Origin: Burkholderiales bacterium
GTDB taxonomy: Bacteria > Pseudomonadota > Gammaproteobacteria > Burkholderiales > WYBJ01
Length of the DNA: 64,000 nt
Direction: 5' to 3'
NCBI GenBank assembly: GCA_020848435.1
Contig: JADLAC010000009.1
Location: 89,765 to 153,764, forward strand
Shown: one piece after another, positions 43,775 to 63,477 of the stretch
Layout of the letters: each line of letters opens with the position of its first letter
How positions within the stretch are numbered: position 1 is the stretch's first letter
Program-made: the position numbers and the translations under genes
Notes under the pieces: model-generated
Database searches by the model: none
What the model was told of the DNA's origin: nothing
What the model saw: the letters and a program-made list of their open reading frames with translations, nothing else

Positions 43775-45208
43775 CTATGCCGCGTCGGCGGCGGTAAGGC
43801 GCACGCTGCGGTGCCGGCGCATCATGGCGCTCACCACGACAATGAGAAACAGCACGCCGCCGATGACCGCGATCAACCCGCCCGCGCCCATCACGCCCAT
43901 CGCGACGATCTGTTCGGTCGTACGCAGCGCCTGATCCGCGCCCGCGACCTTGCGCTGCACGCCGTAGCCTCCGGACCATACCAGGCCGACGATATGCAGC
44001 AATTGCCCGCCCCCGTATACCCAGGGCTGGACATGCGCGAGCCGCGCATTGACGGATCGAAACCCCAGCCGCGGCAAGAGCGCGTACGTCAGGCCCATGA
44101 GCGCCAGTGTCACCCCGACGATGCAACCGTGGTAATGGGCCGGAATCTTGACGTTGCTGCCTTGGATCATGAAGCCGATGATGCCGCCGGCGCCGAACAA
44201 GATGAGCGAGGCCACCAGCGCCGCCCGCATGGGGCGCGTATCCCGGCCCGGTGCGGGGGCGCGCAGCAGCGCCGCGAACACGGCAAGCGTGAAAGGAACG
44301 ATCGCGAGCCCTCCGCCGAAGCGCATCAGCCAGGTGAGCAGCCGATGGTGCTCCACCGAGGCGATGTCGTAGGCCAGGTAGATCACCGGGGTCAGGAACA
44401 CCGAGACCAGGGCGATCGCGAACAGCAGGATCGCTACTCGCGGCGTGAGCGGGACGCGTGCGCCCGCCTCCTCGGCGAGCCACAGCCACGCGACCAGCAT
44501 GAGCAGCGTGTAGGTGAATTGCATGACGTGACCGCCACCCCAGAAGAGCAGCTCGTAGAGCGCGCGCCCGTCCAATCCCCGCGGCAGCACGAGCCACGAC
44601 CAGGCGAAAGCGATCAGCGCGACCGCGAGCGAAACGGCCGCGCTGTTGAGCCCGAAGCGTAGCGCCCCGGCGCCATCGGGTCGGATACCGACGGCCGGGG
44701 CCGCCGTCATGCTGCGCAGGACCAGGCACAAGGTACCGATGCCGAACACGATCAGCCCGCTCAGGAACACCGGCTCGTCGAGCACGGGTATGTAGTTGGC
44801 CATGATCGGATTGCCGCTGCCCGCGAAGGGTGCGGCGGCCATGATCGCCGCACCGCACGCGGACAACGCCAAGGCGCACCAGCCAGCGCGACGCCAGCGC
44901 GGCCCGCTGTTGAGACTCCACAGCACGCCGCCGAAAGCCACGAACCACACCAGCACCGACAAGTCGACGTGCACCACCAGCGCGACGTGGAAGAAGTCCA
45001 CCAGGGGGAAGAAATCCTTCACGTACGGCGCGCGCGAAAGCACGAGGAGCACGGAGAACAGGCCCGATACGAGCAGCGAGACGACGGCGAGCGAGAGCCA
45101 GCCGACCGCGAGCGGACGCCGCGCCGTGTCCGACACGTCGAGCCGGTAGGCATAGGCGCGCGCGCCGCGGCTCGCAGCGCGCCGCGACAGGGCCGCGATC
45201 ATATTCAT
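43775..45208 (-). CDS. Divergent haem-copper oxidase superfamily catalytic subunit (subunit-I-like, 477 aa), no adjacent subunit II
   Basis: The start was trimmed to MNMIAAL at 45208 (ATGA overlap with the upstream gene). Roughly 12 hydrophobic segments. Candidate canonical His set: FFHVAL (helix II), FWGGGHVMQF (helix VI, no Tyr), VEHHRL (helix VII HH), AHYHG (helix X HxH). Confidence 0.6.
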   Translation of the reverse strand: MNMIAALSRRAASRGARAYAYRLDVSDTARRPLAVGWLSLAVVSLLVSGLFSVLLVLSRAPYVKDFFPLVDFFHVALVVHVDLSVLVWFVAFGGVLWSLNSGPRWRRAGWCALALSACGAAIMAAAPFAGSGNPIMANYIPVLDEPVFLSGLIVFGIGTLCLVLRSMTAAPAVGIRPDGAGALRFGLNSAAVSLAVALIAFAWSWLVLPRGLDGRALYELLFWGGGHVMQFTYTLLMLVAWLWLAEEAGARVPLTPRVAILLFAIALVSVFLTPVIYLAYDIASVEHHRLLTWLMRFGGGLAIVPFTLAVFAALLRAPAPGRDTRPMRAALVASLILFGAGGIIGFMIQGSNVKIPAHYHGCIVGVTLALMGLTYALLPRLGFRSVNARLAHVQPWVYGGGQLLHIVGLVWSGGYGVQRKVAGADQALRTTEQIVAMGVMGAGGLIAVIGGVLFLIVVVSAMMRRHRSVRLTAADAA

Positions 45209-45705
45209 CGGAACAGCACTCCTTCGACCTCGCGGTCGAAATCTATGGTCAATACCTGCCCGGCGCGCAAGCTTACGGTGCGCGCCACGACCTGCGGGCT
45301 CGTGTTCCGGCGCGCATCGTCGGCGACGCTCGCCTCGATCCGATGCGTTCCGGCGGCGAGGGGCAAGCGCCGGTAGAGGGTGGCCGCACCGTCGCGCGCC
45401 AAGCCGCGCGGCGGCAGGGTTTCGTCCACCATCAATTCGCCGTCCACGATCAGCCGCACGCGCACATCGGCACGTTCCCGCGGACAGGATTCGGCATGAC
45501 GCATGTTGGCCGGCAGGCGCGCCAGCTCCTCCGCCGACAGGCGGCGGCACGGCTTGAGGCGCGCACCGTCGAGCGTCATGCTGAGGCGAAGCAACGCGGT
45601 ATCCGGAGGCAGTTGCTGGTAGCTCGGCGCGACCGAGCAATACGCGAGCGCGATCCCGCACACGCCGTAACAGAGCAAGCGCCCGAGCATGCGCCGATCA
45701 AGCAT
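45205..45705 (-). CDS. Conserved hypothetical single-TM protein, paralogue of 47334-47837
   Basis: N-terminal TM helix. Motifs shared with the paralogue: LP.D.AL.R.S, EELA.LP.NMR, CPRER, DGAAT.YRR, IDFD. An alternative Met lies at 45690. Confidence 0.5.
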   Translation of the reverse strand: MLDRRMLGRLLCYGVCGIALAYCSVAPSYQQLPPDTALLRLSMTLDGARLKPCRRLSAEELARLPANMRHAESCPRERADVRVRLIVDGELMVDETLPPRGLARDGAATLYRRLPLAAGTHRIEASVADDARRNTSPQVVARTVSLRAGQVLTIDFDREVEGVLFR

Positions 45706-47326
45706 TGCCCAGTCTCCGCAGCCGCGGCCGATCGCCGCGCGCCTCGACGGCGCTCGTCTTGGCGCGCAGACTCGCCACCGCCTGCGCCAGATCGCGCTCC
45801 TCGCCCGCGCCCGCGAAGCTCAAAGCCCAGCGCGAGGGATCGACGCTCGTTCGCAGGTGCGGCTCCCTCTCGCCCGACAAGCGCCGCTCGATCCATTGCG
45901 GCCCGAGGCGGAATTCGCACTCTCCCGGATGGCAGGCGTTGACCACGACCCCGGCTGCACCGGCGCGCAATGCATATTCGACGAACGCCGGCGGCAGCAT
46001 GGCGATGCATAGCAGCGGCAGCGCGAGCACGCCCTCGGCGCGTACGCTGTCGAGCGCTGCCGCACGCTCGCAGCCGAACACGACGATCGCCGGACCGCGC
46101 TCGCCTGCGAGCGCACGCTCCAGCTCCCGGCGCAGATCGTCGACGGTTCGCCGCGGCATGTCGATGCCGCTCAGCAGCGCGTCCGTGCTGCGAAAAGGTG
46201 TGGATGAGGGACAAGCGCCCGCGCAGATACCGCAGCCGGCGCACGCGTCCGCGATCACCACGGGAAAACGTTGGCCGGCTCTCGCACCCGGGCGCGGCTT
46301 CATCGCGATCGCCGCATATGGACAGTCATCGGCGCAGCGCGCGCAGCCGTTGCAGTTGTCGAGATCGACCCGCGCGTGCTCGCGCGGCGCCGGTCTAGCA
46401 GCCAATGCCGGCATCGCACACAACAGCAAGGTCGCGCCGGCGGCGAAACTCCACGCGATTCCAGGCGATGTTTCATACTGGAGCGGATGAATGAAGAGGT
46501 AGAACCAGTCGAGCGCCAAGCCGGTTTGCAGCAGCGTGGGATCGGCCGGCGCATGACTGGCTGCCGGCGCCGCCACGGCGAGCGCGAGCAAGGTGAGCAG
46601 CACGCCCCACGCCAGCGAGCGCGGCGGCAGCGTGTGCACGTGACTGATGCGCTGGATGTGTATCCACATGCCGGCCAGCAGCAGCAAGGGAATGCCGATG
46701 TGCAGGAAGATGAGCAGGGAGAAGAAGCGGTCGTCGATCGGCTGGATGAAATTGCGTACGATCGCATCGCCGCCCAAGGGCAGCCAGTCGAGCCACTCCG
46801 CGGTCGCGGTGATCGAGAACAGAGCGAGCTGGTCCCAGACCAGCCAGTAGCCGCCGATCCCCGAGGCATACGCGAGCCAGATGAGCGGTACCCCGCTCAG
46901 CCAGGAGAACCAGCGAAAGCTCGCGAAGTGCCCGCGCAAGAGCTCGCGCCCGATGTGCAGCAGCATGATCGCCGCGAAAGCATCGGAGGCATAGCGGTGC
47001 AGGCTGCGCATGATTCCGCCGAGATACCATTGCTCGCTGCTCAGCTGCTCGACCGAGGCATAGGCGCCGGCTGCGCTGGTATCGAAGAACGCGTAGAGAT
47101 AGATCCCGGTCGCGGTCACGATCCAGAACAGATAGAACCCGAGGGCGCCGAGCTGGTGCCAGGGGTTGTGCTCGGGCGCGAACGCACGCTCGAGGCCGCG
47201 ACCGATCGCGGCCGCGATACGAACCCACGGTCGCGCTGCCGCGTTGCTCGCCACGCCCGTTGTCCTGAACCCCGACATGGCGCCAATGCTGACACGCGCC
47301 GCCGAGATCGCATTGACGCGGGTCAA
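45698..47326 (-). CDS. Fusion protein: dihaem cytochrome b (bc1/b6 N-terminal type) + 2x[4Fe-4S] ferredoxin + MvhD/FlpD-like domain
   Basis: Four His sit in TM context (SLHRYASD, MLLHIGRE, FLHIGIP, WIHIQR). Two Cys clusters: CNGCARCADDCP and CAGCGICAGACP. The C-terminus VVFGCERAA...LPLLCIAMLPPAFVEYALRAGAAGVVVNACHPGECEF is MvhD-like. The start is TTG at 47326 (AGGAG upstream) or ATG at 47278. Confidence 0.7.
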   Translation of the reverse strand: MTRVNAISAARVSIGAMSGFRTTGVASNAAARPWVRIAAAIGRGLERAFAPEHNPWHQLGALGFYLFWIVTATGIYLYAFFDTSAAGAYASVEQLSSEQWYLGGIMRSLHRYASDAFAAIMLLHIGRELLRGHFASFRWFSWLSGVPLIWLAYASGIGGYWLVWDQLALFSITATAEWLDWLPLGGDAIVRNFIQPIDDRFFSLLIFLHIGIPLLLLAGMWIHIQRISHVHTLPPRSLAWGVLLTLLALAVAAPAASHAPADPTLLQTGLALDWFYLFIHPLQYETSPGIAWSFAAGATLLLCAMPALAARPAPREHARVDLDNCNGCARCADDCPYAAIAMKPRPGARAGQRFPVVIADACAGCGICAGACPSSTPFRSTDALLSGIDMPRRTVDDLRRELERALAGERGPAIVVFGCERAAALDSVRAEGVLALPLLCIAMLPPAFVEYALRAGAAGVVVNACHPGECEFRLGPQWIERRLSGEREPHLRTSVDPSRWALSFAGAGEERDLAQAVASLRAKTSAVEARGDRPRLRRLGNA

Positions 47327-47333
47327 TCCGCCG

Positions 47334-47837
47334 TCAGCTCCTGAAGCGGAAGCCGCCGCGGGCGTTGTCGAAGTCGATCAGCACGCTGCCCCCCGGGGGC
47401 AGGTCGAGGGTGGTCGTGGCGCGATGGTTGAAATCGCCGTGCGGGCGATCGCGCATGCGCACCGCGATCTCGTGGCGCCCCGTGGGCAGCTCGATGCGCC
47501 GGTAGACCGTGGCGGCGCCGTCGTGGTGCAATCCCGAGGGCGGCACGTCGAGGCTCAGCAAGAGCCTGCCGTCGAGCTCCACTTCGACCTTCAACGGCGA
47601 GCGCTCGCGCGGGCAATCGAGCTGCGAGCGCATATTGGGTGGGAGCTTGGCGAGCTCCTCGGGCGTGCGCTGGTGGCATTCGCGCAGGCGCTCGCCGGCA
47701 TGCGAGAACGATACGCGCATGAGCGCGCGGTCCTGCGGCAGGTGCGCAAATCGCGGTGCCGACGAGAAGTAGCCGAGGATCACCATCAAGGGCACGTAGA
47801 GCGCCAATTGCGCCAGAAAGCGCAGCACCCCGATCAT
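47334..47837 (-). CDS. Conserved hypothetical single-TM protein, paralogue of 45205-45705
   Basis: The start was trimmed to MIGVLRF at 47837 (ATGA overlap with the upstream stop). The shared motifs are the same as for 45205-45705. Confidence 0.5.
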   Translation of the reverse strand: MIGVLRFLAQLALYVPLMVILGYFSSAPRFAHLPQDRALMRVSFSHAGERLRECHQRTPEELAKLPPNMRSQLDCPRERSPLKVEVELDGRLLLSLDVPPSGLHHDGAATVYRRIELPTGRHEIAVRMRDRPHGDFNHRATTTLDLPPGGSVLIDFDNARGGFRFRS

Positions 47838-49774
47838 CGCCCGCCCCCGGGCTTCATGATTTCTGCCGCTCCCCCCGGCTTGTGCGCGGGCAGCAGGAAG
47901 GTATCGGAGAAGCAATCCTCTTGCGCGAGCCCGCGGGCAAGAAACGCGGGATGCGCCGCGGCCACCATGTCGACCGATCCGCAGGCATAGATCTGATGGC
48001 CGGCAAGATCCGGAAAGTCGGCCAGGATCGCCTCATGGACCAACCCGATGCGGCCGGTCCAATGGTCCTCCGGCGCCGGGTCCGACATCACCGGAATGAA
48101 CTTGAAATTTGCGTGCTCGCGCTCCCACTGGCGCGGCAGCTCGCCAAGGTACAGATCCTGCGGGCGGCGCACGCCCCAGTACAGCAGCATGTTGCGTTTG
48201 AGGCCGATATGCAGAGCGTGCTCGACCATGCTTTTCACGGGCGCGAAGCCAGTCGATCCGGCGACGAAGATGATCGGCTTGTCGCTGTCTTCGCGCAGGA
48301 AGAACGAGCCCAACGGCGCTTCGAATCGGATGGTATCGCCCACCTGCATATGGTCGAACACCCAGGGCGTGAACTTGCCGCCCGGCACCAGGCGAATCTG
48401 CAATTCGATCTCGCCTTGCACGTGCGGAGCGGTCGCGAAGGAAAAGCTGCGATGCTCGCCGTTCGGCAGCAGCACGTTGATGTACTGCCCGGCGTAGTAG
48501 TCGAGCTGCTCGCCGGGCCCGAGGGCGAGAAAGACCTGCATCACATCGGGGGCGAGGCGGTTCATGCGCGTGACGCGGGCGTTGTAGGTCCGTATCGGCC
48601 GCCCGCCGAGCGGCTCGGTCGGCTCGTACTCGACCTCGATGTCGCTCAACGCCGTCGCGCAGCACAGCAGCAGCTTGCCGGCGGCGCGCTCGGCCTCGCT
48701 GAGCGCGTCCTTCTGGTAGTTGCCCGGATCGATTTCGCCGTAAGTGAGGGTCGCTTTGCATTTGCCGCAGCCGCCGTTGCGGCACTCGAAGGGGAACGCG
48801 ATACCCTCGCGCAAGCCCGCGTCGAGGATGCTTTCGCCTTCGCGCACGCTGATGATGTGGTTGTCCGGGCGCACCAGCAGATGGAAGCCCTCCTTGGAGA
48901 CGCGCCGGCGCTTCGGCGGCAACCACGGCGCCAACAGGAACAGCGCGGTCGCACCGCCGACCAGCGCCCACACCTCACCCGGGCTCCAGCGATACAGCAG
49001 GGCATACACGGGCAGGTAGAACCAGTCGAAATCGATCACCGTCACGGCGGATGCGAGATCCGCCGGCGCCTGGCTCAGCGCGGGCTTGAGCAGCGACAGC
49101 ACCACCAGCGCGGCGCTCAACGTGGCGGCAATCGGCCAAGGCGGCGAGGTGCGCGCCTGCGGCACGCGCTGGGTATGCACCATCAGCAGCGCCAGCGCGG
49201 CGAGCGGGATGCCGATATGGATGAACGAGAGCAGCGAGAACAGCCGGTCGTTCACGTTCTCCGGAAAAATGAAGTTGCGCACCAGCGTACCGCCGAAGAC
49301 CGGGATCCAGTCGAACCATTCGGCCGTGGCGATCACCACGAACTGCGCCAGGCGGTCCCACGGCAGCATGTAACCGTTGATCCCCGCGGAGTAGATGAGC
49401 CAGAGCAGGACGACCCCGCTCACCCAGGAGAACCAACGGAAGGCGCGGTAACGGTCGAACACGAAATGCCGCGCCAGGTGCAAGAGCATGGTCAATACCA
49501 TGCCGTCGGAGGCATAGCGGTGCAGGCTGCGCAAGATGCCGCCGAAATACCATTGCCCGTGGGTGAGCTGCTCGACCGAGGCGTAGGCTTCTTCCACTCC
49601 GGTATCGAAGAAGATGTAAAGGTAGAGCCCGCTTCCCAGCACGATCCAGAACAGGAAGTAGCTGATCGGACCGAGGTAATAGAGCGGATTGAGGCGGTCG
49701 CCGAAAGCGAGGTTGAAGAAGCTCTCCACCCGCAGGAAAGCCCAGCGTCCGGCACGATGCACGAGTTTCAACAC
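47834..49774 (-). CDS. Fusion protein: dihaem cytochrome b (bc1/b6 N-terminal type) + plant-type [2Fe-2S] ferredoxin + FNR-like FAD/NAD(P)H reductase
   Basis: The cytochrome-b half is paralogous to 45698-47326 (SLHRYASD, MLLHLARH, FIHIGIP, MVHTQR). The ferredoxin motif is FECRNGGCGKCKA...LLCCA. The FNR module reads RSFSFA (FAD) ...IIFVAGSTGFAP (NAD(P)H) ...YACGS. GTG start. Confidence 0.75.
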   Translation of the reverse strand: MLKLVHRAGRWAFLRVESFFNLAFGDRLNPLYYLGPISYFLFWIVLGSGLYLYIFFDTGVEEAYASVEQLTHGQWYFGGILRSLHRYASDGMVLTMLLHLARHFVFDRYRAFRWFSWVSGVVLLWLIYSAGINGYMLPWDRLAQFVVIATAEWFDWIPVFGGTLVRNFIFPENVNDRLFSLLSFIHIGIPLAALALLMVHTQRVPQARTSPPWPIAATLSAALVVLSLLKPALSQAPADLASAVTVIDFDWFYLPVYALLYRWSPGEVWALVGGATALFLLAPWLPPKRRRVSKEGFHLLVRPDNHIISVREGESILDAGLREGIAFPFECRNGGCGKCKATLTYGEIDPGNYQKDALSEAERAAGKLLLCCATALSDIEVEYEPTEPLGGRPIRTYNARVTRMNRLAPDVMQVFLALGPGEQLDYYAGQYINVLLPNGEHRSFSFATAPHVQGEIELQIRLVPGGKFTPWVFDHMQVGDTIRFEAPLGSFFLREDSDKPIIFVAGSTGFAPVKSMVEHALHIGLKRNMLLYWGVRRPQDLYLGELPRQWEREHANFKFIPVMSDPAPEDHWTGRIGLVHEAILADFPDLAGHQIYACGSVDMVAAAHPAFLARGLAQEDCFSDTFLLPAHKPGGAAEIMKPGGGR

Positions 49775-49849: not shown

Positions 49850-50692
49850 TCAGCCGCGGGAGCGGCGGCGCTGGCGCCGCCATTCGTAGATGAGACTGCC
49901 CGTTCCGGCAAGCACGATGCTCGCGCCGACCAGCAGCTCGATCACGACGGCGTAGTTCAAGCGATACCTGCCCGCGCTCGGATCATACACCGTGCAGAGC
50001 AGCCGGACACGTTCGAGCCAGTCGGCGAGCGCCGGAGACGCGCTGCGCTGCCCGGTGACGAGCTCCTTCAGCGGACCGACCAGCAAGGGCAGATCGAACG
50101 AATCACCATAGAGCTGACGATAGATGCGCCCCTCCGGATCCACGACCGTGAGCTGGAGCACGTGGTCGAAGCCCTTTGCCGTCTGCGCGTAGCTGAAGCC
50201 GAAATCACGCAACAGCGCATCGACGCGCCCGGCGTCCGGGCTCAGAAACGACCATCCCGGCAGATCCGCCCCGTGGCGCCGGGCGAAATCCTTCATTGCG
50301 ACCGGGTTATCGTGGGGAAGATTGAAGCCGATCGTGATGCTGTGGAAGCTGTCGGCGCCAAGCGTCTGCTGTGCCGAACGCAATGCCTTGACGAGGAATT
50401 GCGTAGTCGCGGGGCAGACTTCGTAGCAGCCGGTATAGACGAAGCTCACCACCAGCGGCTTGCCGCGGTATTGGCTCAGTCGAACGCGTTTGCCTTGGGC
50501 TTCGGTGAATTCGTAATCGGCCGGCGCGGTTCCGACGACACCCTGGCTCAGCGCCAGGGCTGCCTTCTGGTCGAGCGCTGCGCTGGATTGAGCGCGGGTG
50601 GTTTCGGCCAGCAGGACCAGGGTCACGACGAGCCCCACCGCGATGCCGATGCGGGTGGCGAGGCCGGCGCGCTTGCCACCGCGGAGCGTCAA
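49850..50692 (-). CDS. SCO1/SenC-family copper chaperone (thioredoxin fold) with an extra C-terminal TM segment
   Basis: CxxxC motif in FVYTGCYEVCP. N-terminal TM anchor. The TTG start overlaps the cyoE stop (TTGA). Confidence 0.8.
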   Translation of the reverse strand: MTLRGGKRAGLATRIGIAVGLVVTLVLLAETTRAQSSAALDQKAALALSQGVVGTAPADYEFTEAQGKRVRLSQYRGKPLVVSFVYTGCYEVCPATTQFLVKALRSAQQTLGADSFHSITIGFNLPHDNPVAMKDFARRHGADLPGWSFLSPDAGRVDALLRDFGFSYAQTAKGFDHVLQLTVVDPEGRIYRQLYGDSFDLPLLVGPLKELVTGQRSASPALADWLERVRLLCTVYDPSAGRYRLNYAVVIELLVGASIVLAGTGSLIYEWRRQRRRSRG

Positions 50693-51543
50693 TCGCGCAC
50701 TCCGGCGTCGATCAGCGCCGCGAACAGCAGCAGGGAAAGCTGGACCAGGGTCGCATGAAAATTCGCCATGGCGGTCGCGCGGTTCGGCGCGCGCACCAGC
50801 GCCACGCTCTTCACCAGCAGATAGGCGCCGCCGGCAACCGCGCCCACGAGATAAACCGCACCCAGACTATAGAACGCCGGCAGCAGCGAGGCCGCCACCA
50901 GCAGCACGCTATTCCAGAATATCACCCGAGCGCTGCGGCTCTCGCCCACCAACACGGGCAGCATGGGCACGCCGGCCGCCCGGTAATCGTCCTGAAAGGC
51001 GATGGCGAGGCTCCAGAAGTGCGGCGGCGTCCAGAGGAACAACACGAAGGCGAACGCGAGCGCTTCGGCCGTCAGCTCGACGCTCACGCTCGCCGCACCG
51101 GCCAACACCGCGAAGCTCCCCGCCAGGCCGCCGATGACGATATTGAGCCAGGTGCGCCGTTTCAGCCACACGGTGTAGACCACGGCGTAGAAGAATGCGC
51201 CGAGGAAAACGTACAGTGCCGCCAGCGGATTCACCGCGAGGGCGGCGCTGCCGACGGCAGCGACGATCATGAGGACAATCAGCGCGAGCCAGTGTCTGCC
51301 GTGGCGCAGGCTGCCGCTCACGAAAGGCCGCGCGCGAGTACGGCGCATGCGCGCGTCGAGGTCGCGCTCGGCGTATTGGTTGAACGCGCCCGCGGCCGCC
51401 GATGCCACCAGCACGGACAAGGCGAGGACCAGGCTTTGCCAAATCGTAGGACGCGGTCCGGGGGTGACCGCGATGCCGGTAACGGCGGTGAGCGCGATGA
51501 CGATCCCGATCCGCAGCTTGAAGAGATTCAGAAAGGTCTTCAT
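50689..51543 (-). CDS. cyoE: Protohaem IX farnesyltransferase (haem O synthase)
   Basis: 284-aa polytopic UbiA-family protein. NQYAERDLDARMRRTRARP and WTPPHFWSLA are characteristic of CyoE/CtaB. Confidence 0.9.
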   Translation of the reverse strand: MKTFLNLFKLRIGIVIALTAVTGIAVTPGPRPTIWQSLVLALSVLVASAAAGAFNQYAERDLDARMRRTRARPFVSGSLRHGRHWLALIVLMIVAAVGSAALAVNPLAALYVFLGAFFYAVVYTVWLKRRTWLNIVIGGLAGSFAVLAGAASVSVELTAEALAFAFVLFLWTPPHFWSLAIAFQDDYRAAGVPMLPVLVGESRSARVIFWNSVLLVAASLLPAFYSLGAVYLVGAVAGGAYLLVKSVALVRAPNRATAMANFHATLVQLSLLLFAALIDAGVRD

Positions 51544-51631: not shown

Positions 51632-53356
51632 TTAACTCAGCGGCCAGACCGTCGACAGGTACTTCCAGTTGACGAAGTAGTACAGGATGAAGGAGATCAG
51701 GAACACCATCGCGAGCACCAGCGTTCCCGGCGCCACGAAGCCGGCCATGCCCACGTTGGGATGATGCGCGGCGATCGCCGCCGCCACCGGCGCCGGTGCC
51801 GGTGCTATGCCTTCCGCGGCGCGCACGTGCTTGAAGTCCGGCACATCGACGCGCGGCGCGAAGAACACCGATCCCACGGTGATCAAGAGATAGATCGCTC
51901 CGCCCACTACCGCCGCCAAGCCGGCCAGCGCCGTCAACGCCATCATCAGCCAGGCCGCACCGGGGAACTCGTAGGGCATCGCGTTACCGGCGAAGCTGAT
52001 GTCCCAGTGCCGGCGCGGTACGCCCAGGGTGCCGGCGCCCATCATGAACAGGGCGAAAGCGCTCATCCCCAAGCCGAACAGATAAGGTTGCCATTGCGCG
52101 AGCTTGGGAAACAGCATCTTGCGCCGGAACAGCACCGGTATGAGGAAATACGTGAGCGACATGAAGGCAAGGGTGGTGCCGACCACCACCGTCGCGTGGA
52201 AGTGCCCCGGCACGTAGATGGTGTTGTGGATGATGAGGTTGAGCTGCTCGGTGCCCATCATCACGCCGGAAATCCCGCCGAGGAAGCCGAAGCCGATGAG
52301 GGAGATGAACATGCCGGCGAACACGGGATTGCCCCACGGCGCCTTGCGCAGCCACTCGAACAGGCCGCGGTTGTAGCCCTTTTCCCGTTGTGCGACCTCG
52401 ATGGCGCCCGGCACGGTGAGCCCGTGCACCATGCTCGCCAGCACCGCCAGGTACATCGCGTAGCTGGTGTTGAAGATCTTCCAGTTCGAGGTCAGACCCG
52501 GATCAGCGAGCAGATGGTGGGCGGAGGCGAGCTGCAAGAACAGGATGTAGAGCAGGAACGCGCCGCGGCTCACCTTCTCGCTCATGGGCTTCGCGCCGAA
52601 CACGATCGCGGCGATCGCATACCAGACCGAGACGTGGGCCGCGACGTTGATCTGTTGCGAGGAGTGACCGAAGCCCCACCACACGGTGCGATACATCAGC
52701 GAATCGATGTGTTCGACCAGGCCGACCGACCAGAGGAAGGTCGGGATCAGGATGATGGCCCCCGAGGCGATCGTGAACACCGCGATGATGCACGCCGTCA
52801 CGGCGCCGAAGGTGACCAGCGGTATGGAACCGTTGTAGGTGCGCTCGGCCTTTGCCACCACCAGGGTACCGAGGAAGACGAAGCAGCCGATGAGCGCACC
52901 GACCGCGAACAGGATGAGCCCGAGATAGAACGCCGGATGGGCGCCCATCGGCGCGTAGGAGGTGAACATCACGCTGGACGTGCCGCTGAAGATCGCGTAG
53001 TTGTTCATGATCGCGCCCAGGATCATGAGCCAGAAGCCGACCCAGGCGAGCCCCGGCGTTGCAAGCCGGCAGCGCAGCAGGGTGCTGGAGGCGAAGTACA
53101 GGATCGCGATCTCGAAGAAGATGATCCACAGCACCAGCATGTCGACGCCGTGCGCCGTGAGGAAGAGATAGAACCAATCGGGCGAGAGCAGGTGGACGGC
53201 TTGCCAGCGGGTGAGGGTCACGCCGAGGGCCAGGATGCCGCCGACGAGCAGCGACACCACGGCCGCGACCGCGTGCGCCTTCATCAGCTTCTCCGCCGGC
53301 TCGTGGAACAGCAGTCCCGTGCTGGGACAGGTCCGGAACATTCGATTGACTGCCAT
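51632..53356 (-). CDS. Haem-copper oxidase subunit I (divergent, B-/NOR-related; helix-VI Tyr absent)
   Basis: 574 aa. All six canonical His are recognisable: LTAHGV, WWGFGHSSQQ, ASAHHL, PGHFHATV. The usual GHPEVY is replaced by GHSSQQ. Confidence 0.85.
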   Translation of the reverse strand: MAVNRMFRTCPSTGLLFHEPAEKLMKAHAVAAVVSLLVGGILALGVTLTRWQAVHLLSPDWFYLFLTAHGVDMLVLWIIFFEIAILYFASSTLLRCRLATPGLAWVGFWLMILGAIMNNYAIFSGTSSVMFTSYAPMGAHPAFYLGLILFAVGALIGCFVFLGTLVVAKAERTYNGSIPLVTFGAVTACIIAVFTIASGAIILIPTFLWSVGLVEHIDSLMYRTVWWGFGHSSQQINVAAHVSVWYAIAAIVFGAKPMSEKVSRGAFLLYILFLQLASAHHLLADPGLTSNWKIFNTSYAMYLAVLASMVHGLTVPGAIEVAQREKGYNRGLFEWLRKAPWGNPVFAGMFISLIGFGFLGGISGVMMGTEQLNLIIHNTIYVPGHFHATVVVGTTLAFMSLTYFLIPVLFRRKMLFPKLAQWQPYLFGLGMSAFALFMMGAGTLGVPRRHWDISFAGNAMPYEFPGAAWLMMALTALAGLAAVVGGAIYLLITVGSVFFAPRVDVPDFKHVRAAEGIAPAPAPVAAAIAAHHPNVGMAGFVAPGTLVLAMVFLISFILYYFVNWKYLSTVWPLS

Positions 53357-53374
53357 GACTTATCCCCCCTTGTT

Positions 53375-53914
53375 CTACTTTACGTAGAGCTTGCTCGACA
53401 TCGTGTGATGATTGATGCCGCAGTACTCGTTACAGATGATCGAATAGGTCCCGGCGCGAGTGGGTTGCACGGTAAGGACGTGGTCGTAGCCCGGATGCAC
53501 CTGGATGTTGATGTTCTCGGGCTGCAGCGAGAATCCGTGCAGCCAATCCATCGACATGAGATGGATGCGGTAGCTCTTGCCGGCCTCGAGCTCGAGGATC
53601 GGCCACCACGACCACAGGCGCGCTACCAGGTACACGTCGCTGCCGGCGGGCGGCGCCACCACGGGAATCTTCTGGTCGGTCTCGGTGCGCACGGTGAACT
53701 TGTCCACCATATCCTGCGCCTTCTTCATGTAGACCTCGGGCGTGGTGCGGTACGCCTCGTTGGCCAGGTTCTGTTTTCCGAACACATGCCAGTACGGCAT
53801 CATGAAGAACATGATCAGGCACCAGATCAGCGCGATGACGACCCAGGTGCCCTCCACGCGATCCAGCGGTTGCTTCCACCAGACGCGATCCTCGGGCGGT
53901 AGTATGGCGCTCAT
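53375..53914 (-). CDS. Haem-copper oxidase subunit II with a CuA cupredoxin domain
   Basis: One N-terminal TM helix. The CuA motif is WLHGFS...CNEYCGINHHTM (H...C-x-E-x-C-G-x-x-H-x-x-M). Confidence 0.75.
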   Translation of the reverse strand: MSAILPPEDRVWWKQPLDRVEGTWVVIALIWCLIMFFMMPYWHVFGKQNLANEAYRTTPEVYMKKAQDMVDKFTVRTETDQKIPVVAPPAGSDVYLVARLWSWWPILELEAGKSYRIHLMSMDWLHGFSLQPENINIQVHPGYDHVLTVQPTRAGTYSIICNEYCGINHHTMSSKLYVK

Positions 53915-54325: not shown

Positions 54326-55357
54326 ATGGATCGAAGCACACGTATACGAGTGGCGGCATGGCTGTTCGCGTGCTGCGTGCTGCTATTCACGATGATCGTG
54401 ATCGGTGGCATCACGCGTCTCACCCGCTCCGGACTTTCCATCGTCGAATGGCAGCCGATCGCCGGTGCGCTGCCGCCTTTGAACGAAGCGCAGTGGCTCG
54501 AGACCTTCGAGAAGTACCGGCAGACCCCCGAGTACAAGCAGGTCAACTTCGGCATGAGCCTCGCCGAGTTCAAAGGCATCTTCTGGTGGGAATACATCCA
54601 TCGCCTGCTCGGGCGTCTCATCGGCCTGGTCTTTTTCATTCCCTACGCCTGGTTCCTGCTGCGCAAGCGGCTCGACCGCGACAGCGCCTGGAAGCTCGGC
54701 CTGGTGTTCGTTCTCGGCGCGATCCAAGGGGCGATGGGCTGGTACATGGTCAAGAGTGGCCTGGTCGACGATCCGCGCGTGAGTCACTATCGGCTCAGCG
54801 CGCATCTCGGCCTCGCCTTCGCGATCTTCGCGGCCATGTTCTGGATCGCTCTCGACATGCTGAAGCCCAGGCTCGTACCGGTCTCCGAACCCGCACGGCG
54901 GCTCGGGCGCGTCGCCCTCACCACGGCGCTACTCGTGTTCGTCATGATCCTGAGCGGCGGCCTGGTCGCCGGCATTCGCGCGGGCTACGCGTACAACACC
55001 TTTCCGCTCATGAACGGCCATTGGATCCCGCCCGAGATCCTGCTGATCGAGCCGTGGTACCTCAACTTCTTCAACAATATGGCGACGGTCCAGTTCGATC
55101 ATCGGACGCTCGCCTGGATCCTGCTCGTGCTCATCGCGGGGATGTGGATCGCGAGCCGCTCGCCCGCGCTTCCCGCGCGCGCGCGTTTCGCAGCGCATTT
55201 CCTGCTGCTCGCCATCGCGTTGCAGTTCTCACTCGGCGTGGCGGCCCTGTTGCTGCGCGTGCCGGTGCCGCTCGGCGCTGCGCACCAGGGCGGCGCCGTG
55301 CTGGTGCTGGCGGCGCTCCTTTGGTTCGCGCACGAGCTGCGCCGTCCGGAGCATTAG
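54326..55357 (+). CDS. ctaA: Haem A synthase (COX15/CtaA family)
   Basis: The start was trimmed to MDRSTRIR at 54326. IGGITRLTRSGLSIVEWQP...W..F.KY...PEY and WEYIHRLLGR are typical of COX15. Confidence 0.85.
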   Translation: MDRSTRIRVAAWLFACCVLLFTMIVIGGITRLTRSGLSIVEWQPIAGALPPLNEAQWLETFEKYRQTPEYKQVNFGMSLAEFKGIFWWEYIHRLLGRLIGLVFFIPYAWFLLRKRLDRDSAWKLGLVFVLGAIQGAMGWYMVKSGLVDDPRVSHYRLSAHLGLAFAIFAAMFWIALDMLKPRLVPVSEPARRLGRVALTTALLVFVMILSGGLVAGIRAGYAYNTFPLMNGHWIPPEILLIEPWYLNFFNNMATVQFDHRTLAWILLVLIAGMWIASRSPALPARARFAAHFLLLAIALQFSLGVAALLLRVPVPLGAAHQGGAVLVLAALLWFAHELRRPEH

Positions 55358-55361: not shown

Positions 55362-56327
55362 ATGCACGCCACCTCGGCCCCGCGCCGGTTGCTCGCGCGC
55401 GCGGCGTTGCTCGGCTGCGTTCTCATGGCCGTCATCGTCATCTCGAGCGCATTCCTGCGCCTGACCAGCATCGGCATCGGTTGCGCGGATTGGCCGCAAT
55501 GCTATGGCCGCCTCGCGAGCGCGAGCGCGGCCGCCGACCCCCTGCCCCCGGCCGCGGTACGAGTCGCGCGCCTGTTGCATCGGTTCGCCGCGATGCTGAC
55601 AGGGGTGCTCGTGCTGTTCATGCTCATCGTCTCCATCACGCGCGCCGGGCGTACGCGTGCCAACTTCGGCGCCGCGCTCGCCTTGTGTCTGGCGACGATT
55701 CTGCTGGCGGCGATCGGACGCAGCAGCGCCGGGACGCTCGTGCCCTTGATCGGTGTCGTCAATCTCGTCGGCGGCTTCACGATGCTGCTGCTGTTCTGGC
55801 TGCTCTGGTCTACGAACGCCAGTGCGAGCGGCTCGACGCCGGCCCCTGTGCAGGTGCGGCTCGCGGCCTTCGCTCTGCTCGCGGCCTTGCTCGCGCAAGT
55901 CGCCGCGGGCGCATTGTCCAGCGTCACGTATGGCGTCACGACCTGTAGCGCTCCGTTGACGTGCGCGACCGATTCGCAGGGTAGCTTGGAGGCGTTGCGC
56001 AGCCTGACCCCGAGCGTGCCGCTCCAGGTCGAGGACGAGCGCGTGATTGCACCCAAGGGTGCAGCCGAGCTGCAACTGCTGCACCGTTATTCGGGTCTCG
56101 CGCTTGGCGCGATCCTCATCGCTCTCGGCGCGTGGCTGCTGTGGGTGAAGCGGTTGCGCGCGCTCGCCGTGGCGCTCGTTGCGGCGGCCGCCGCCGAGCT
56201 GCTGCTCGGCCTGGCGATGGTGTCGGGCCCTCTGCCGTTGTCCGCGGCGCTCGCGCACAATGCGCTCGCAGCGGTTCTGCTGCTCCTGCTTGCTTTCCTC
56301 GCGCTGCGCCGCAGCCGCGGCGATTGA
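55362..56327 (+). CDS. Second CtaA/COX15-like polytopic membrane protein (Cys-pair type)
   Basis: SSAFLRLTSIGIGCADWPQCYG and LLHRFAAML resemble the CtaA N-terminal half. HRYSGL and LAHNALA resemble the second half. Confidence 0.6.
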   Translation: MHATSAPRRLLARAALLGCVLMAVIVISSAFLRLTSIGIGCADWPQCYGRLASASAAADPLPPAAVRVARLLHRFAAMLTGVLVLFMLIVSITRAGRTRANFGAALALCLATILLAAIGRSSAGTLVPLIGVVNLVGGFTMLLLFWLLWSTNASASGSTPAPVQVRLAAFALLAALLAQVAAGALSSVTYGVTTCSAPLTCATDSQGSLEALRSLTPSVPLQVEDERVIAPKGAAELQLLHRYSGLALGAILIALGAWLLWVKRLRALAVALVAAAAAELLLGLAMVSGPLPLSAALAHNALAAVLLLLLAFLALRRSRGD

Positions 56328-56337
56328 TCGACATCAA
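56324..56337. promoter_or_regulatory. Perfect FNR-consensus box TTGAT-CGAC-ATCAA
   Basis: Direct reading. It overlaps the stop codon of the 55362-56327 gene and lies about 155 nt upstream of the DUF2249 ORF. Confidence 0.5.
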
Positions 56338-56490: not shown

Positions 56491-56718
56491 GTGAACGGAA
56501 GCGAAGTTGTGGTGGTCGACGCTCGCTGGCTGCAGCATCCCGAGCCCATGGAAAAAGTGCTCGCGGCGCTATCGGCGCTCACTCCCGGCCAGCGCCTGCT
56601 ATTCAAGATCCACCGCGAGCCCTATCCGCTGTACCGCATGCTCGAAAAGAACAACTACGGTTGGAAGGTGGCCAAGCAGGACGACGGCACCTTCGAGATC
56701 ACGATCTGGGAGCAGTAG
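56491..56718 (+). CDS. DUF2249-family small protein
   Basis: VVVDARWLQHPEPMEKVLAALSALTPGQRLLFKIHREPYPLYRML matches the DUF2249 pattern (lD.R.L..P.P...il.al..L.pG..L........P.PL). The GTG start at 56491 is assumed. Confidence 0.5.
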   Translation: MNGSEVVVVDARWLQHPEPMEKVLAALSALTPGQRLLFKIHREPYPLYRMLEKNNYGWKVAKQDDGTFEITIWEQ

Positions 56719-56838
56719 CGCCGGCAACGCGAAGCCAGTCGGTGGGGCGCTGCGAGCGCCGGGGTGCAATCCCGCGAGCTCGATGGCTTCGGCCCGGGCA
56801 GGGTTCGATTCGGCGTGATCGAATCGCCCTGATGCGCA

Positions 56839-57711
56839 TCAGCCGGCGAGCAGCGAGGGGGCGGATTCATCCGCTCCCGCCAGGCATATGGTCGGGGACG
56901 CTTCGCGCAGGCGCACCACCGCGCCGACGACGACCAGCGTCGGTGAGCAAAGCCGCTGCGCCACCGCGGCCGCGGGCAACGTCGCCAGTGTTGCGGTGAC
57001 GACGCGTTGCTCGGGCGTGGTGCCGTTCTCGACCACCATCGCCGGCGTATCCGCCGCCAGGCCGTGCGCGATGAGCTCGCGGGCGAATATGGCAAGACCT
57101 TTCAGCCCCATGTACACCACGACTGTCTGCAGCGGGCGCGCAAGCGCCTCCCAGTCCAGGTTCACGCTGCCGTCGCGCAAGTGCCCGGTCACGAACACGC
57201 ATGCATGGGCGTGATCGCGATGCGTGAGCGGCACACCGGTCGCGGCCGCGATGCCGCAGGCGGCCGTGATACCCGGCACGACCTCGCAGGCGATGCCGTG
57301 GCGTCGTAACGCCTGCATCTCCTCGCCGCCGCGGCCGAAGACGAAGGGATCGCCGCCTTTCAGGCGCACCACTTCCTTGCCCGCGCGCGCGAGCGCCACC
57401 AGCAAGTCGTTGATATCGTCCTGCGGCAAGGTGTGGTTGTCGCGCTCCTTGCCGACGTAGAGCTTGGCCGTGCGCGCCGCGGCGAAGTCGAGCACCGCCG
57501 GCGTGACCAAATGGTCGTAGACGATGACATCGGCCTCGCGGATCGCACGCAGCGCACGCAGCGTCAGCAGCTCCGGGTCGCCCGGCCCGGCGCCGACCAG
57601 TAGCACTCGTCCCGGCGCATGCCGCCGGCTACGGGAGCCGAGAGCACCTTCCTCACCAAGACGTTCGGAGCGCCGGGCGGCGCCGCGCTCACCGCGATAC
57701 TCGTCTTCCAT
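56839..57711 (-). CDS. nirE: Uroporphyrinogen-III C-methyltransferase (SUMT; NirE-type, haem d1 / sirohaem branch)
   Basis: VLLVGAGPGDPELLTLRALRAIREADVIVYDHLV and LKGGDPFVFGRGGEE. A GGAGGTGG RBS lies upstream. The gene is divergent from nirS. Confidence 0.85.
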   Translation of the reverse strand: MEDEYRGERGAARRSERLGEEGALGSRSRRHAPGRVLLVGAGPGDPELLTLRALRAIREADVIVYDHLVTPAVLDFAAARTAKLYVGKERDNHTLPQDDINDLLVALARAGKEVVRLKGGDPFVFGRGGEEMQALRRHGIACEVVPGITAACGIAAATGVPLTHRDHAHACVFVTGHLRDGSVNLDWEALARPLQTVVVYMGLKGLAIFARELIAHGLAADTPAMVVENGTTPEQRVVTATLATLPAAAVAQRLCSPTLVVVGAVVRLREASPTICLAGADESAPSLLAG

Positions 57712-57776
57712 TCCACCTCCGATCGGAATCGGCTCCGAGCTCGCGCGTATTTGAACCCACGACGCGCGTACGGAAT

Positions 57777-57790
57777 TTGACGAAGGTCAA
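57777..57790. promoter_or_regulatory. FNR/DNR/NnrR-type palindromic box TTGAC-GAAG-GTCAA upstream of nirS copy 1
   Basis: Direct reading. The box centre lies about 81 nt upstream of the nirS ATG at 57865. Confidence 0.6.
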
Positions 57791-57864
57791 TGGGATACGG
57801 CATGCGCTGCAGCATCCTAAGCGCCGATGAAAGTTTCGTTGATAGCGTCACAGAGGAGATGGCC

Positions 57865-59487
57865 ATGAGAAGAGCGGGTAAGGTGCTGAGCGCTGCCGTG
57901 TTGGCGGCGTTTCCACTGGCAGTCGCGGCGCAGGCGAGCGCGCCGAGCATGACGGCAGCGGAGAAGGAAACCGGAAAACGCATTTACTTCGAGCGCTGCG
58001 CGGGCTGCCACGGCGTGCTGCGTAAAGGCGCCACCGGCAAGAACCTCGAGCCGGTGAACATGTTGAAGCTCGGCCAGAATCGGCTCGAAACCATCATTTC
58101 GCTCGGCACCGACGGCGGCATGGTGAACTTCGACGACATCATGAGCAAGGAAGAAATCACCACCATGGCGAAGTACATCCAGAACCAACCGGACGTTCCG
58201 CCGGAGTTCGGGATGAAGGACATGATGGCGAGCTGGAAGATGATCGTGCCGCCGGAGAAGCGGCCGACCAAGCAGATGAACAAAGTCAACCTGAAAAACG
58301 TCTTCTCGGTGACGCTGCGCGACACCGGCGAGGTGGCGCTGATCGACGGCGACACGAAGAAGATCGTGTCGATCGTGAAGACGGGCTACGCGGTGCACAT
58401 CTCGCGCCTGTCGTACTCGGGGCGCTACGTCTATGTCATCGGCCGCGACGGCAAGCTCGACTTAATCGATCTGTGGATGGAGCAGCCCGCGGTGGTCGCC
58501 ACCATCAAGATCGGCAGCGACGCGCGCTCGGTCGATACCTCCAAGTTCAAAGGCTTCGAGGACAAGTACGCGATCGCCGGCTCCTACTGGCCGCCGCAGT
58601 ACGTGATCATGGAAGGCAACACGCTGAAGCCGTTGAAGCTGGTCTCCACCCGCGGCATCACCGTCGACGGCGAATACCATCCCGAGCCGCGCGTCGCCTC
58701 CATCGTCTCCTCGCACATCAAGCCCGAGTGGGTCGTGAACATCAAGGAGACCGGCCAGATCCGGCTGGTCGACTACTCCGACATCAAGAACCTGAAAGAG
58801 ACGACCATCGAGTCGGCGAAGTTCTTGCACGACGGCGGCTGGGATGCTTCCAAGCGCTACTTCCTGGTGGCGGCGAACGCTTCGAACAAGATCGCCGTGG
58901 TCGACACCAAGGACGGCAAGCTCGCCGCGCTGGTCGACACCAAGAAGATCCCGCACCCCGGCCGGGGCGCGAACTTCACGCACCCGAAGTTCGGTCCGGT
59001 CTGGGCGACCGGCCATCTCGGCGCGGACGTGGTCACGCTGATCGGCACCGACCCGCAGAAGAACCCGCAGCACGCGTGGAAAGTGGTGCAGGAGCTGAAG
59101 ATGCACGGCGCGGGCAATCTGTTCGTGAAGACGCATCCGAAGTCGGCCAACCTGTGGGCCGACGCGCCGCAGAATCCGGAGCGTGACGTGGCCGAATCGG
59201 TGGCGGTGTACGACCTCAAGAATCTGGAGAAGGCGCCGGAGATCATCAACATCGCCAAGCTCGCGGGCCTGCCCGAGAGCAAGGCGATCAAGCGCGCGGT
59301 GCATCCGGAGTACAGCGAGAAGGGCGACGAGGTCTGGATCTCGCTGTGGGCGGGCAAGACCGAGCCGTCCGCGATCGTGGTGCTCGACGACAAGACCCGC
59401 AAGGTGAAGACGGTCATCAAGGATCCGAAGCTCATCACCCCGACCGGCAAGTTCAACGTCTGGAACACCCAACACGACATCTACTAG
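57865..59487 (+). CDS. nirS: Cytochrome cd1 nitrite reductase, copy 1
   Basis: Signal peptide and haem-c motif CAGCHG in [20 protein letters not shown]. The d1 beta-propeller landmarks are present ([37 protein letters not shown]). The start is at 57865 (AGAGGAG 7 nt upstream) or 57859. Confidence 0.9.
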
Positions 59488-59497
59488 CGGCACATGC

Positions 59498-59526
59498 GCG
59501 GCGCCTGCGGGCGCCGCTCTTTTTTG
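59498..59526 (+). terminator. Rho-independent terminator after nirS copy 1
   Basis: The 8-bp stem GCGGCGCC/GGCGCCGC with loop TGCG is followed by TCTTTTTTG. Confidence 0.6.
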
Positions 59527-59548
59527 CACCATCACCAGAAGCACGATC

Positions 59549-60124
59549 ATGACCGAACACAAAGCAGGGAGCGCATCGCGCCGGCGCATCCGCGGCTTCG
59601 CCACCGCGGCGTTGCTCGCGAGCGGGATCGGCGCGGGCGTCATCCTTTGGGGCGGCTTCAATACCGCCGTGGAATGGACCAATACCGAGACCTTTTGCAT
59701 CTCCTGCCACGAGATGCGCGACAACGTCTACGCCGAGTACCGCAAGACGATCCACTACAACAACCGCACGGGCGTGCGTGCCACCTGCCCGGACTGTCAC
59801 GTGCCGAGGGAGTGGGGCCCGAAGATGCTGCGCAAGATCCGCGCGACCGCCGAGCTGTGGGGCAAGATGACCGGCAGCATCGACACACGCGAGAAGTTCG
59901 TGGCCAACCGCCTGCGGCTCGCCGAGAACGAGTGGCGGCGCATGAAGGCGAACGATTCGCTCGAGTGCCGCAACTGCCACGGCTTGTCCTTCATGGATAC
60001 GGAAAAACAGCGGCAACGCGCGCGGCGCCAGCACGAGCTGGCGCAGAAGGACGGCCAGACGTGCATCGACTGCCACAAGGGCATCGCCCACAGCAAGCCC
60101 GAGGGCATGAAAGAAGACGACTGA
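59549..60124 (+). CDS. nirT: NapC/NirT-family membrane-anchored tetrahaem cytochrome c
   Basis: One TM helix and four CxxCH motifs (CISCH, CPDCH, CRNCH, CIDCH). Confidence 0.85.
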
Positions 60125-60165
60125 CCCCACCTCACCGGATACAAGACACGCGGAGACGACGAGCG

Positions 60166-61151
60166 ATGAAAACGACGATAGCAATGCTGGTGGCCGGAGT
60201 GCTCGGCACGGCGGCGGGTGCAGCCGCGGCAGCGCCTGACTGGAACAAGGTGCCGCGCAAGACCTTCACACTGTTCTATCCCGGCACCGGGTCGATGGAA
60301 TGGACCCTCATCGGCACCGAGCACGGCGGCGCGCGTGCGATGCGCAAGGGCGAGACCTGCGCGAGCTGCCACAACGACGAGGCGGCCGACATGGGCAAGA
60401 AGATCGTCTCGGGCCAGAAGATCGAGCCCGACGCCGCCTCGGTAAAGGGCAAGGCGGGGTCGATCCCTGTCACCGTGCAGGCGGCCTACGATGCGAGCAA
60501 CGTGTATCTGCGCTTCCAGTGGAAGCAGCCGGGAGGCGCCCCCGGGCCGAAGAACGATCCGAAGAACGCGGTCAAGCTCGCCGTCATGCTCGAAGACGGC
60601 GGCAAGGTCGAGCATGCGCGCATCGGCGGGTGCTGGGCGAGCTGTCACCACGACCTGCGCAGCATGCCGGATGCGGATCCGAACGCGTCCAAGCATGCGC
60701 GCGCGAAGGCGCTCGAGATCCTCCCCAACGGGCCTACCAAGTATCTCGCCGAGAGCCGCACGGCGATCGAGGGACGCAACAAGCCGCTCGGCGGCTGGGA
60801 CAAGCTCAAGTCGGAGGCGGACTTCGCCGCGCTGCTCAAGGAAGGCAAGTTCCTCGAGATGTGGCAGTTTCGCAGCGCCGAGCCGCCGCGTTCGGGTTAC
60901 GTGCTCGATGCACGCCACCTCAAGGCCGCGCCGGGGCTCGCCGAAGGCCGCAACGAGAGCGGCAACTGGACGGTGACCTTCACCCGCAAGCTCGCCGGGG
61001 GCAGCGGCGCGCACACCATCGCGGCGGGCAAGAGCTACTACGTGGGCTTCGCCATCCACGACGAGCACGTCGAGGCGCGCTACCACCATGTATCGCTCGG
61101 TTATCGGCTGGCGCTCGATGACGCGAAGGCCGATATCAACGCGGTGAAGCA

Positions 61152-61155: not shown

Positions 61156-63477
<2,322 letters not shown>

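Follow-up and report, generated by a model that had tools for sequence, protein, structure and literature searches.

A CuA-containing heme-copper enzyme encoded in a Burkholderiales genome is probably an eNOR-type nitric oxide reductase

The window analysed here is a 64,000-nucleotide stretch of contig JADLAC010000009.1, from a Burkholderiales bacterium, and carries on its minus strand an array of open reading frames (ORFs) built around a two-subunit heme-copper enzyme. The two core genes of this array, for subunit II and the catalytic subunit I, lie within positions 51632–53914; a small ORF precedes them, and they are followed by genes for heme o synthase and an SCO1/SenC copper chaperone and by five further genes (Table 1). 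On the opposite strand, two genes for heme A synthase-like proteins lead away from the array towards a nir cluster. An earlier note, made from the sequence alone, had drawn attention to the motif GHSSQQ in the catalytic subunit, had likened the arrangement to the norSY-senC (sNOR) type of nitric oxide reductase (NOR) and had regarded the substrate, nitric oxide (NO) or O2, as ambiguous.

Among solved structures, the closest relative of both subunits is the ba3 oxidase of Thermus thermophilus, a member of the B family (PDB 1EHK, 1XME and 3S8F). Subunit I matches its counterpart in this enzyme at E ~1e-50, and A-family chains at ~2e-5. Mapping onto ba3 recovered six canonical histidine ligands (H69, H231, H280, H281, H385 and H387, equivalent to ba3 H72, H233, H282, H283, H384 and H386), with H69 and H387 as ligands of the low-spin heme, H385 as the ligand of the high-spin heme, and H231, H280 and H281 as ligands of the active-site metal. 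The position of ba3 Tyr237, the tyrosine of the cross-linked cofactor, is occupied by Gln235 in the motif G230-H-S-S-Q-Q235. This helix-VI Tyr is present in 17 of the 17 canonical B-family sequences that we aligned and is missing from the GHSSQQ of the window protein. Further substitutions relative to ba3 are Val236 to Gln, Trp239 to Asn and Thr312 to His; in addition, Tyr244 is lost, and Glu82 and Tyr270 are gained.

More than 8,000 database clusters match subunit I. Residue conservation was counted in the best 80 of at least 589 relatives, which came from a scan of one genome per species and are 72–84% identical to the window protein; they include the cultured strains Noviherbaspirillum sp. 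ST 5-3, Curvibacter sp. PAE-UM and Piscinibacter caeni MQ-18. All six histidine ligands are invariant in these 80 sequences, as are Q234, Q235 and N237. Across the wider clade of sequences that carry Gln at the Tyr position (the Gln clade), the signature consists of E82, Q234, Q235, N237, Y270 and H311, three residues of which (Glu82, Gln234 and Asn237) are invariant in the clade and absent in canonical B-family sequences. Residues resembling the K-channel of ba3 are also kept, namely Y246, S259, S308 and T314. The equivalent of ba3 Ser309, S308, is kept as Ser in 77 of the 80 relatives and replaced by Thr in 3, and an invariant His, H311, stands at the position of ba3 Thr312.

Subunit II has one N-terminal membrane helix followed by a cupredoxin domain, which aligned with the CuA domain of ba3 at E ~3e-13. 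Its full set of CuA ligands (H126, C161, C165, H169 and M172; E163 lies between the cysteines) is invariant in 77 of 77 relatives. So is E21, a residue at the cytoplasmic end of the helix that matches ba3 E15(II), the Glu at the entrance of the K-channel. Directly upstream of subunit II, a translated match to the small ORF was found in 76 of the 80 related loci, and plasmids of Defluviimonas, Thermus and Thermomicrobium have short hypothetical genes there. This ORF, which is shorter than the 80-residue minimum of the ORF list supplied for the window, probably encodes a small subunit comparable by position to ba3 subunit IIa. The ba3 oxidase and the window enzyme thus have in common the six His ligands, the CuA site, a K-channel layout that includes the Glu of subunit II, and a small extra subunit gene upstream, whereas the chemistry to be expected of the window enzyme would be reduction of NO rather than of O2.

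NORs derived from the B family can be told apart by the residue at the Tyr position, eNOR having Gln and sNOR Asn there (PMC8756737, section 2.7.1 and Table A4). In addition, eNOR has conserved polar residues that resemble the B-family K-channel, including the Ser309 equivalent, whereas sNOR has no Ser309 equivalent, conserves a Glu elsewhere in the channel instead and stands on a branch of its own in the published tree (Murali et al. 2024, PMC11214002, cited here and below from the part of its text that was available). Consistent with eNOR, the window enzyme combines a B-family-like subunit I, Gln at the Tyr position, a CuA-containing subunit II and K-channel-like residues. The motif GHxxQQ(I/V)N is shared by the window protein, the three cultured Burkholderiales, a Defluviimonas plasmid copy (62% identity to the window protein), the Thermomicrobium roseum megaplasmid (45%), a T. 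thermophilus plasmid copy (44%) and the haloarchaeon Natrarchaeobius (42%); Thermus, Thermomicrobium and haloarchaeal lineages are named as eNOR hosts in the literature. In a neighbour-joining tree with 200 bootstraps, which had neither the Rhodothermus marinus eNOR nor any sNOR reference among its sequences, the Gln-bearing sequences formed one clade (78.5% bootstrap) apart from the Tyr-containing B family. Nearest to it were archaeal sequences with the motif GHxxQY(V/I)N, which have the Tyr, and canonical GHPxVYFW B-family sequences were further off. Candidate sNOR and bNOR references from a plasmid collection (Geobacillus, Deinococcus, Brevibacillus, Methylobacterium, Variovorax and Caballeronia) all proved to be ordinary Tyr-containing B-family oxidases.

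Taken together, these features indicate with good confidence that the products of the two core genes form the catalytic part of an eNOR-type NOR, a known offshoot of the B family. The window enzyme is, on this assignment, an ordinary member of an already described family, and its unusual active-site motif is already explained. All that the earlier note had read from the letters is borne out: subunit I has the six canonical His without the helix-VI Tyr, the CuA motif of subunit II is intact, and an SCO/SenC gene lies in the same array. A NOR-related heme-copper enzyme is also the right description of the whole, which derives from the B family. The phylogeny and residue alignment proposed there for checking were also carried through, and they place the protein in the Gln clade beside the B family with its K-channel residues aligned to ba3, albeit on a tree that had no R. 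marinus or sNOR reference.

The best-characterized member of the family with which the window enzyme can be compared is the eNOR of R. marinus DSM 4252. Both are B-family-derived two-subunit enzymes with a CuA subunit, the Gln marker and K-channel-like residues, and both are associated with heme a biosynthesis genes by the operon and with nirS (PMC11214002, available text). The likeness is one of described features, not of a sequence alignment, and the host differs, being here a mesophilic Burkholderiales known from a metagenome-assembled genome. A second comparison, by description only, is with the 'cytochrome a1-like' hemoprotein of Magnetospirillum magnetotacticum, which the available text of the same study counts as an eNOR. 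This protein contains heme a, and its host is a proteobacterium that denitrifies microaerobically; no experiment has established its function.

Several relatives encountered in these comparisons deserve description in their own right. On the plasmid of T. thermophilus TF24, a compact eNOR-type cluster at 9283–12140 consists of a small ORF, subunit II and subunit I; it sits between nirS and a gene for an Rrf2-family regulator and is annotated as a ba3-type oxidase. The Thermus copy has the helix-X motif H-F-K instead of H-F-H, which agrees with the His/Lys heme ligation of some eNORs (Murali et al. 2024, PMC11214002, available text). The archaeal sister clade (two Hodarchaeales, one Thermoproteota and one further sequence) has Glu82, Gln234, Asn237, Tyr270 and His311 together with the cross-link Tyr, and its GHxxQY(V/I)N sequences may be oxygen reductases near the point at which the Tyr was lost in eNOR. 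A separate group of three relatives, including one Dehalococcoidia metagenome-assembled genome, has the helix-VI motif GHxxHY, and there Tyr replaces the first His of the helix-VII pair and also the high-spin heme ligand His.

Regulatory sequence and gene context point towards denitrification. An FNR/Dnr/NnrR-type box, TTGACTTTAATCAA, lies about 90 bp upstream of the small ORF, and a scan of the window found four boxes with at most one mismatch, all in the eNOR/nir part. Of the further three, one precedes the DUF2249 gene, one precedes the gene for the second cytochrome d1 protein and one is situated near 63.6 kb. We searched 280 bp around the small-ORF start in relatives (about 260 bp of it upstream) and found a box with at most one mismatch in 44 of 70, against a background of 0.038 per 280 bp. 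Because the box recurs upstream of the eNOR operon, control by an FNR/Dnr/NnrR-type regulator is indicated, and the distribution of boxes in the window suggests that one regulon may cover the nir and eNOR genes. A scan of the operon for sigma-70 promoters and terminators gave nothing above shuffled expectation. Less than 10 kb from the eNOR genes are nirE-like, nirS and nirT genes and a gene for a second cytochrome d1 protein. In a profile search of the whole window, no heme-copper proteins were detected beyond subunit I and a divergent 477-residue protein at the end of the operon.

The genes that flank the core concern the supply of heme and copper. Heme o synthase, which performs the first step to heme a, is encoded 3′ of subunit I in 71 of the 80 related loci. 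The SCO1/SenC gene overlaps the ctaB stop codon by 4 bases, is present in 44 of the 46 loci with at least 9 kb of downstream sequence, and presumably serves to load CuA. A divergent ctaA was seen in 29 of the 61 loci with at least 3 kb upstream. The second CtaA-like gene of the window has a counterpart in only one of the 80 related loci (34% identity), and its pairing with ctaA looks particular to the window genome.

Given that cyoE (ctaB) is adjacent and ctaA divergent, the earlier note had considered that the enzyme might instead be a heme a/o oxygen reductase. Both genes are indeed present, but the eNOR purified from R. marinus, which has a modified heme a (heme As) at each of its two heme sites, reduced NO with a kcat of ~0.7 per second at 25 °C and showed no O2 reduction with any donor tried (PMC11214002). 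The same text describes ctaA in many eNOR operons, as well as microoxic conditions for expression of the R. marinus enzyme, which were needed because heme A synthase requires O2. The two synthase genes are therefore no argument for O2 reduction, because the R. marinus eNOR carries heme a yet reduces NO and not O2; they are as the eNOR family predicts.

The oxygen reductase idea can also be put in a stronger form, in which the window enzyme would be a ba3-like oxidase without the canonical Tyr that uses, for example, Tyr270 of helix VII in its place. Not only is a ba3 oxidase the closest solved structure, with heme o and heme a synthase genes on either side of the core, but Y270 is invariant in the Gln clade, and FNR-type control would fit a low-oxygen oxidase too. 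We examined helix VII for such a residue, as the earlier note had advised. Y270 lies 10 residues N-terminal of H280, further than the C-family Tyr (~6), and it is conserved equally in the archaeal sister clade. Because that clade retains the canonical Tyr, Y270 is not a migrated cross-link Tyr; it has another role and more probably belongs to the proton path. The window protein thus has neither the helix-VI Tyr of B-family oxygen reductases nor a substitute Tyr as in the C family, in line with the published study, whose available text reports no migrated Tyr in these NOR families (PMC11214002). With the purified R. marinus enzyme reducing no O2, we consider an oxygen reductase very improbable. 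The ambiguity between NO and O2 seen in the earlier note is accordingly largely resolved by the published biochemistry of the family, although it persists for the window protein itself, which we infer from its family to reduce NO but not O2, to contain heme a and to take up protons.

The operon extends beyond senC by five genes whose reading frames overlap or nearly abut. They begin with a 646-residue cytochrome b fusion (fusion 1), in which two His pairs, each 14 residues apart (H-x13-H), can be read from the translation, and continue with a small protein of up to 193 residues, a 542-residue cytochrome b fusion (fusion 2) and a second small protein of 166 residues. The membrane domains of the two fusions are 46% identical, and the two small proteins, which share a conserved Cys pair, are 40% identical (E = 4e-38); neither small protein matched a Pfam or NCBIfam family above threshold. 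Positions 45205–49774 therefore hold two tandem copies of one module, in which a cytochrome b fusion gene is paired with a gene for a small protein; the copies differ in their cytoplasmic redox domains. Among the 46 loci with sufficient downstream sequence, fusion 1 was found on the same strand in 34, fusion 2 in 40 and at least one fusion in 45, and the 193-residue and 166-residue proteins in 45 and 44, respectively. Overall, the extended operon occurs in more than 90% of the related loci for which sequence was sufficient.

The last gene of the operon, which was found in 43 of the 46 loci, encodes the 477-residue protein mentioned above. Sequences of solved structures gave no match to it other than noise, but its AlphaFold model (pLDDT 85.7) has a fold that matches subunit I of the A and B families (TM score ~0.7). 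Its orthologs have invariant heme ligands (H80, H358 and H360) and an invariant metal ligand (H227), whereas the helix-VII pair is degenerate: H287 is retained in 91% and H288 in 33%, Arg being the most frequent residue at the latter position, and the three-His metal site is thereby incomplete in most orthologs. The Tyr position is held by an invariant Phe, F231, and no gene for a cupredoxin subunit lies beside it. Judged from these residues, the protein could bind hemes without a complete active-site metal. We also considered it as a gNOR or nNOR and rejected both, as the residues checked show neither the His-to-Asp change of gNOR nor the Glu and His/Met ligation of nNOR. Beyond the end of the operon lie two genes that are unrelated to eNOR (Table 1).

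A closely similar gene set has been described in Ferrigenium straubiae strain KS, in which eNOR II, eNOR I, heme o synthase, sco1 and a 'scaffold protein' were reported as a very common arrangement (bioRxiv 10.64898/2026.01.22.701106). Ferrigenium and the window have the same genes, that is, eNOR II and I, heme o synthase, sco1, both cytochrome b fusions, a hypothetical protein and the scaffold protein; fusion 1 corresponds to the Ferrigenium 'Cytbc1CCC-like protein 1' and fusion 2 to 'Cytbc1CCC-like protein 2'. The two clusters differ in the order of the cytochrome b modules relative to the scaffold gene; the Ferrigenium cluster also includes a PerM gene and is not adjoined by ctaA. Proteins of the Ferrigenium operon were found in the proteome of denitrifying, Fe(II)-oxidising cultures, and its first fusion was proposed to be a quinol:NAD+ oxidoreductase (bioRxiv 10.64898/2026.01.22.701106). 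The same preprint considered the cytochrome b fusions out of the ordinary and suggested that they might mark Ferrigenium, whereas our synteny counts show that they are the norm across the proteobacterial eNOR clade. For R. marinus, the available text mentions none of the five extra downstream genes (PMC11214002).

One may tentatively imagine that the Burkholderiales-type eNOR, instead of working as a two-subunit enzyme by itself, is part of a larger membrane module, in which two cytochrome b proteins, their small partners and the oxidase-fold protein would couple NO reduction, in either direction, to NAD(P)H or ferredoxin-type carriers of the cytoplasm, without the bc1 complex and cytochrome c. 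The genes are associated almost throughout this clade, yet we hold such a function to be doubtful on present sequence comparisons; a dedicated module had already been raised as an idea for Ferrigenium in the 2026 preprint.

A different role or activity for the window enzyme, such as NAD(P)H-driven detoxification of NO through the cytochrome b fusions in place of cytochrome c-driven respiration, appears very improbable to us. It would account for an NAD(P)H-type reductase domain on one fusion, for a nirS gene that is adjacent in a minority of relatives only, and for the co-occurrence of the fusions, their small partners and the second oxidase-like protein in more than 85% of relatives with enough sequence. 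However, the invariant CuA ligands fit a periplasmic donor, the accessory genes are not needed for the core reaction, because the core eNOR operons of Thermus and Thermomicrobium occur without them, and nothing in the present comparisons ties the accessory proteins to eNOR physically or functionally. We give next to no credence to the sNOR identity suggested in the earlier note: the norS-norY-senC enzyme of ammonia-oxidising bacteria shares with the window a B-family origin, a CuA subunit, the missing helix-VI Tyr and a senC/SCO gene in the array, but it has Asn where the window protein has Gln235 (PMC8756737, Table A4) and lacks the Ser309 equivalent kept here as S308 (PMC11214002, available text), and the senC linkage that the note had taken as a pointer does not single it out because Sco1 is a common part of eNOR operons (bioRxiv 10.64898/2026.01.22.701106) and an SCO gene also lies 3′ of a Tyr-containing B-family oxidase on a Methylobacterium plasmid.

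Several observations weigh against the assignment to eNOR as an NO reductase and temper our confidence in it. The tree was built by neighbour joining and gave moderate support only. One K-channel residue of ba3, Y244, is not kept, V242 being found at that position. The connection to the R. marinus enzyme would run through the Gln, the clustering with host lineages listed in the literature, and the classification of the Ferrigenium proteins; NO reductase activity is known from the R. marinus enzyme alone, not from close proteobacterial relatives. With respect to context, FNR-type control is also typical of high-affinity oxidases and does not discriminate between NO and O2, and nirS was found within ~10 kb in only 6 of the 32 relatives whose sequence extends that far in both directions.

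For an eNOR, the sequence features, clade membership, gene context and conserved regulatory box on which this analysis is based suggest the following scheme. Electrons from a periplasmic carrier would enter at CuA in subunit II and pass through the low-spin heme (H69/H387) to the active site, formed by the high-spin heme (H385) and a metal, either Fe or Cu, on H231, H280 and H281, where two NO would be converted to N2O and water. Gln235, together with Gln234, would stand in place of the redox-active His–Tyr cofactor, and four-electron reduction of O2 is therefore not expected. Protons would probably be taken up on the cytoplasmic side by a K-channel like that of ba3, leading from E21 of subunit II past T314, H311, S308 and Y246 to S259, and such cytoplasmic uptake would make NO reduction electrogenic. 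Both hemes are probably heme a, which the heme o synthase of the operon and the divergently transcribed heme A synthase would supply, and the SenC/Sco protein probably delivers the copper of CuA. Expression would probably be switched on by the FNR/Dnr/NnrR-type regulator at low oxygen or in the presence of NO, jointly with the adjacent nirS cluster.

Table 1 Features of the eNOR and nir region of the window, in order of position (aa, amino acids)
Feature	Position	Strand	Identification or remark
Lantibiotic dehydratase N-terminal domain protein	37571-40333	-	beyond operon end; unrelated to eNOR
Carboxymuconolactone decarboxylase-like + Rieske fusion	42399-43556	+	beyond operon end; unrelated to eNOR
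Divergent subunit-I-fold protein, 477 aa ('eNOR scaffold protein')	43775-45208	-	COX1, E = 6e-17; last in operon
Small protein, 166 aa	45205-45705	-	paralog of 193-aa protein
Cytochrome b fusion 2, 542 aa	45698-47326	-	di-heme cytochrome b, then two 4Fe-4S motifs, then FlpD/MvhD-like domain
Small protein, up to 193 aa, start uncertain	47334-47915	-	paralog of 166-aa protein
Cytochrome b fusion 1, 646 aa	47834-49774	-	di-heme cytochrome b, then 2Fe-2S ferredoxin, then FAD and NAD(P)-binding domains
SCO1/SenC copper chaperone	49850-50692	-	PF02630, E = 1.8e-13
Heme o synthase (ctaB/cyoE)	50689-51543	-	TIGR01473, 259.8 bits against a cut-off of 210.3
Subunit I (probable eNOR), 574 aa	51632-53356	-	Pfam COX1, E = 1.3e-64
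Subunit II (probable eNOR), 179 aa	53375-53914	-	Pfam COX2; ba3 subunit II match
Small ORF, 59 aa	53948-54127	-	one hydrophobic helix; directly upstream of subunit II; read from sequence
FNR/Dnr/NnrR-type box TTGACTTTAATCAA	54219-54232		divergent region between small ORF and ctaA
Heme A synthase (ctaA)	54326-55357	+	divergent; NF045570, E = 1.5e-95, below curated cut-off
Second CtaA/COX15-like gene	55362-56327	+	directly 3′ of ctaA
Further FNR/Dnr-type boxes	56324-56337, 61612-61625, 63592-63605		two perfect, one single-mismatch
nir cluster	56497-63477	mostly +	beyond ctaA: DUF2249 gene, nirE-like, nirS, NapC/NirT, EB_dh-type, second cytochrome c plus d1
nirS	57790-59487	+	
nirE-like tetrapyrrole methyltransferase	within nir cluster	-	
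NapC/NirT tetraheme cytochrome; EB_dh-type heme protein	within nir cluster		
Second cytochrome c plus d1 protein	within nir cluster		NirN-like or second NirS

Scientific interest at this locus attaches to what the closely linked accessory genes do; they lie outside 51632–53914 and were already flagged in the Ferrigenium preprint. If it is true that their products form a complex with eNOR, electrons would have a new path by which to enter NO reduction or to leave it. The practical value of the eNOR call lies in annotation. Proteins of this kind carry the database label of cytochrome oxidase, and genome surveys would score soil and groundwater Burkholderiales that encode them as lacking a NOR, that is, as incomplete denitrifiers. 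Recognising these proteins as eNOR changes predictions of which organisms produce N2O.

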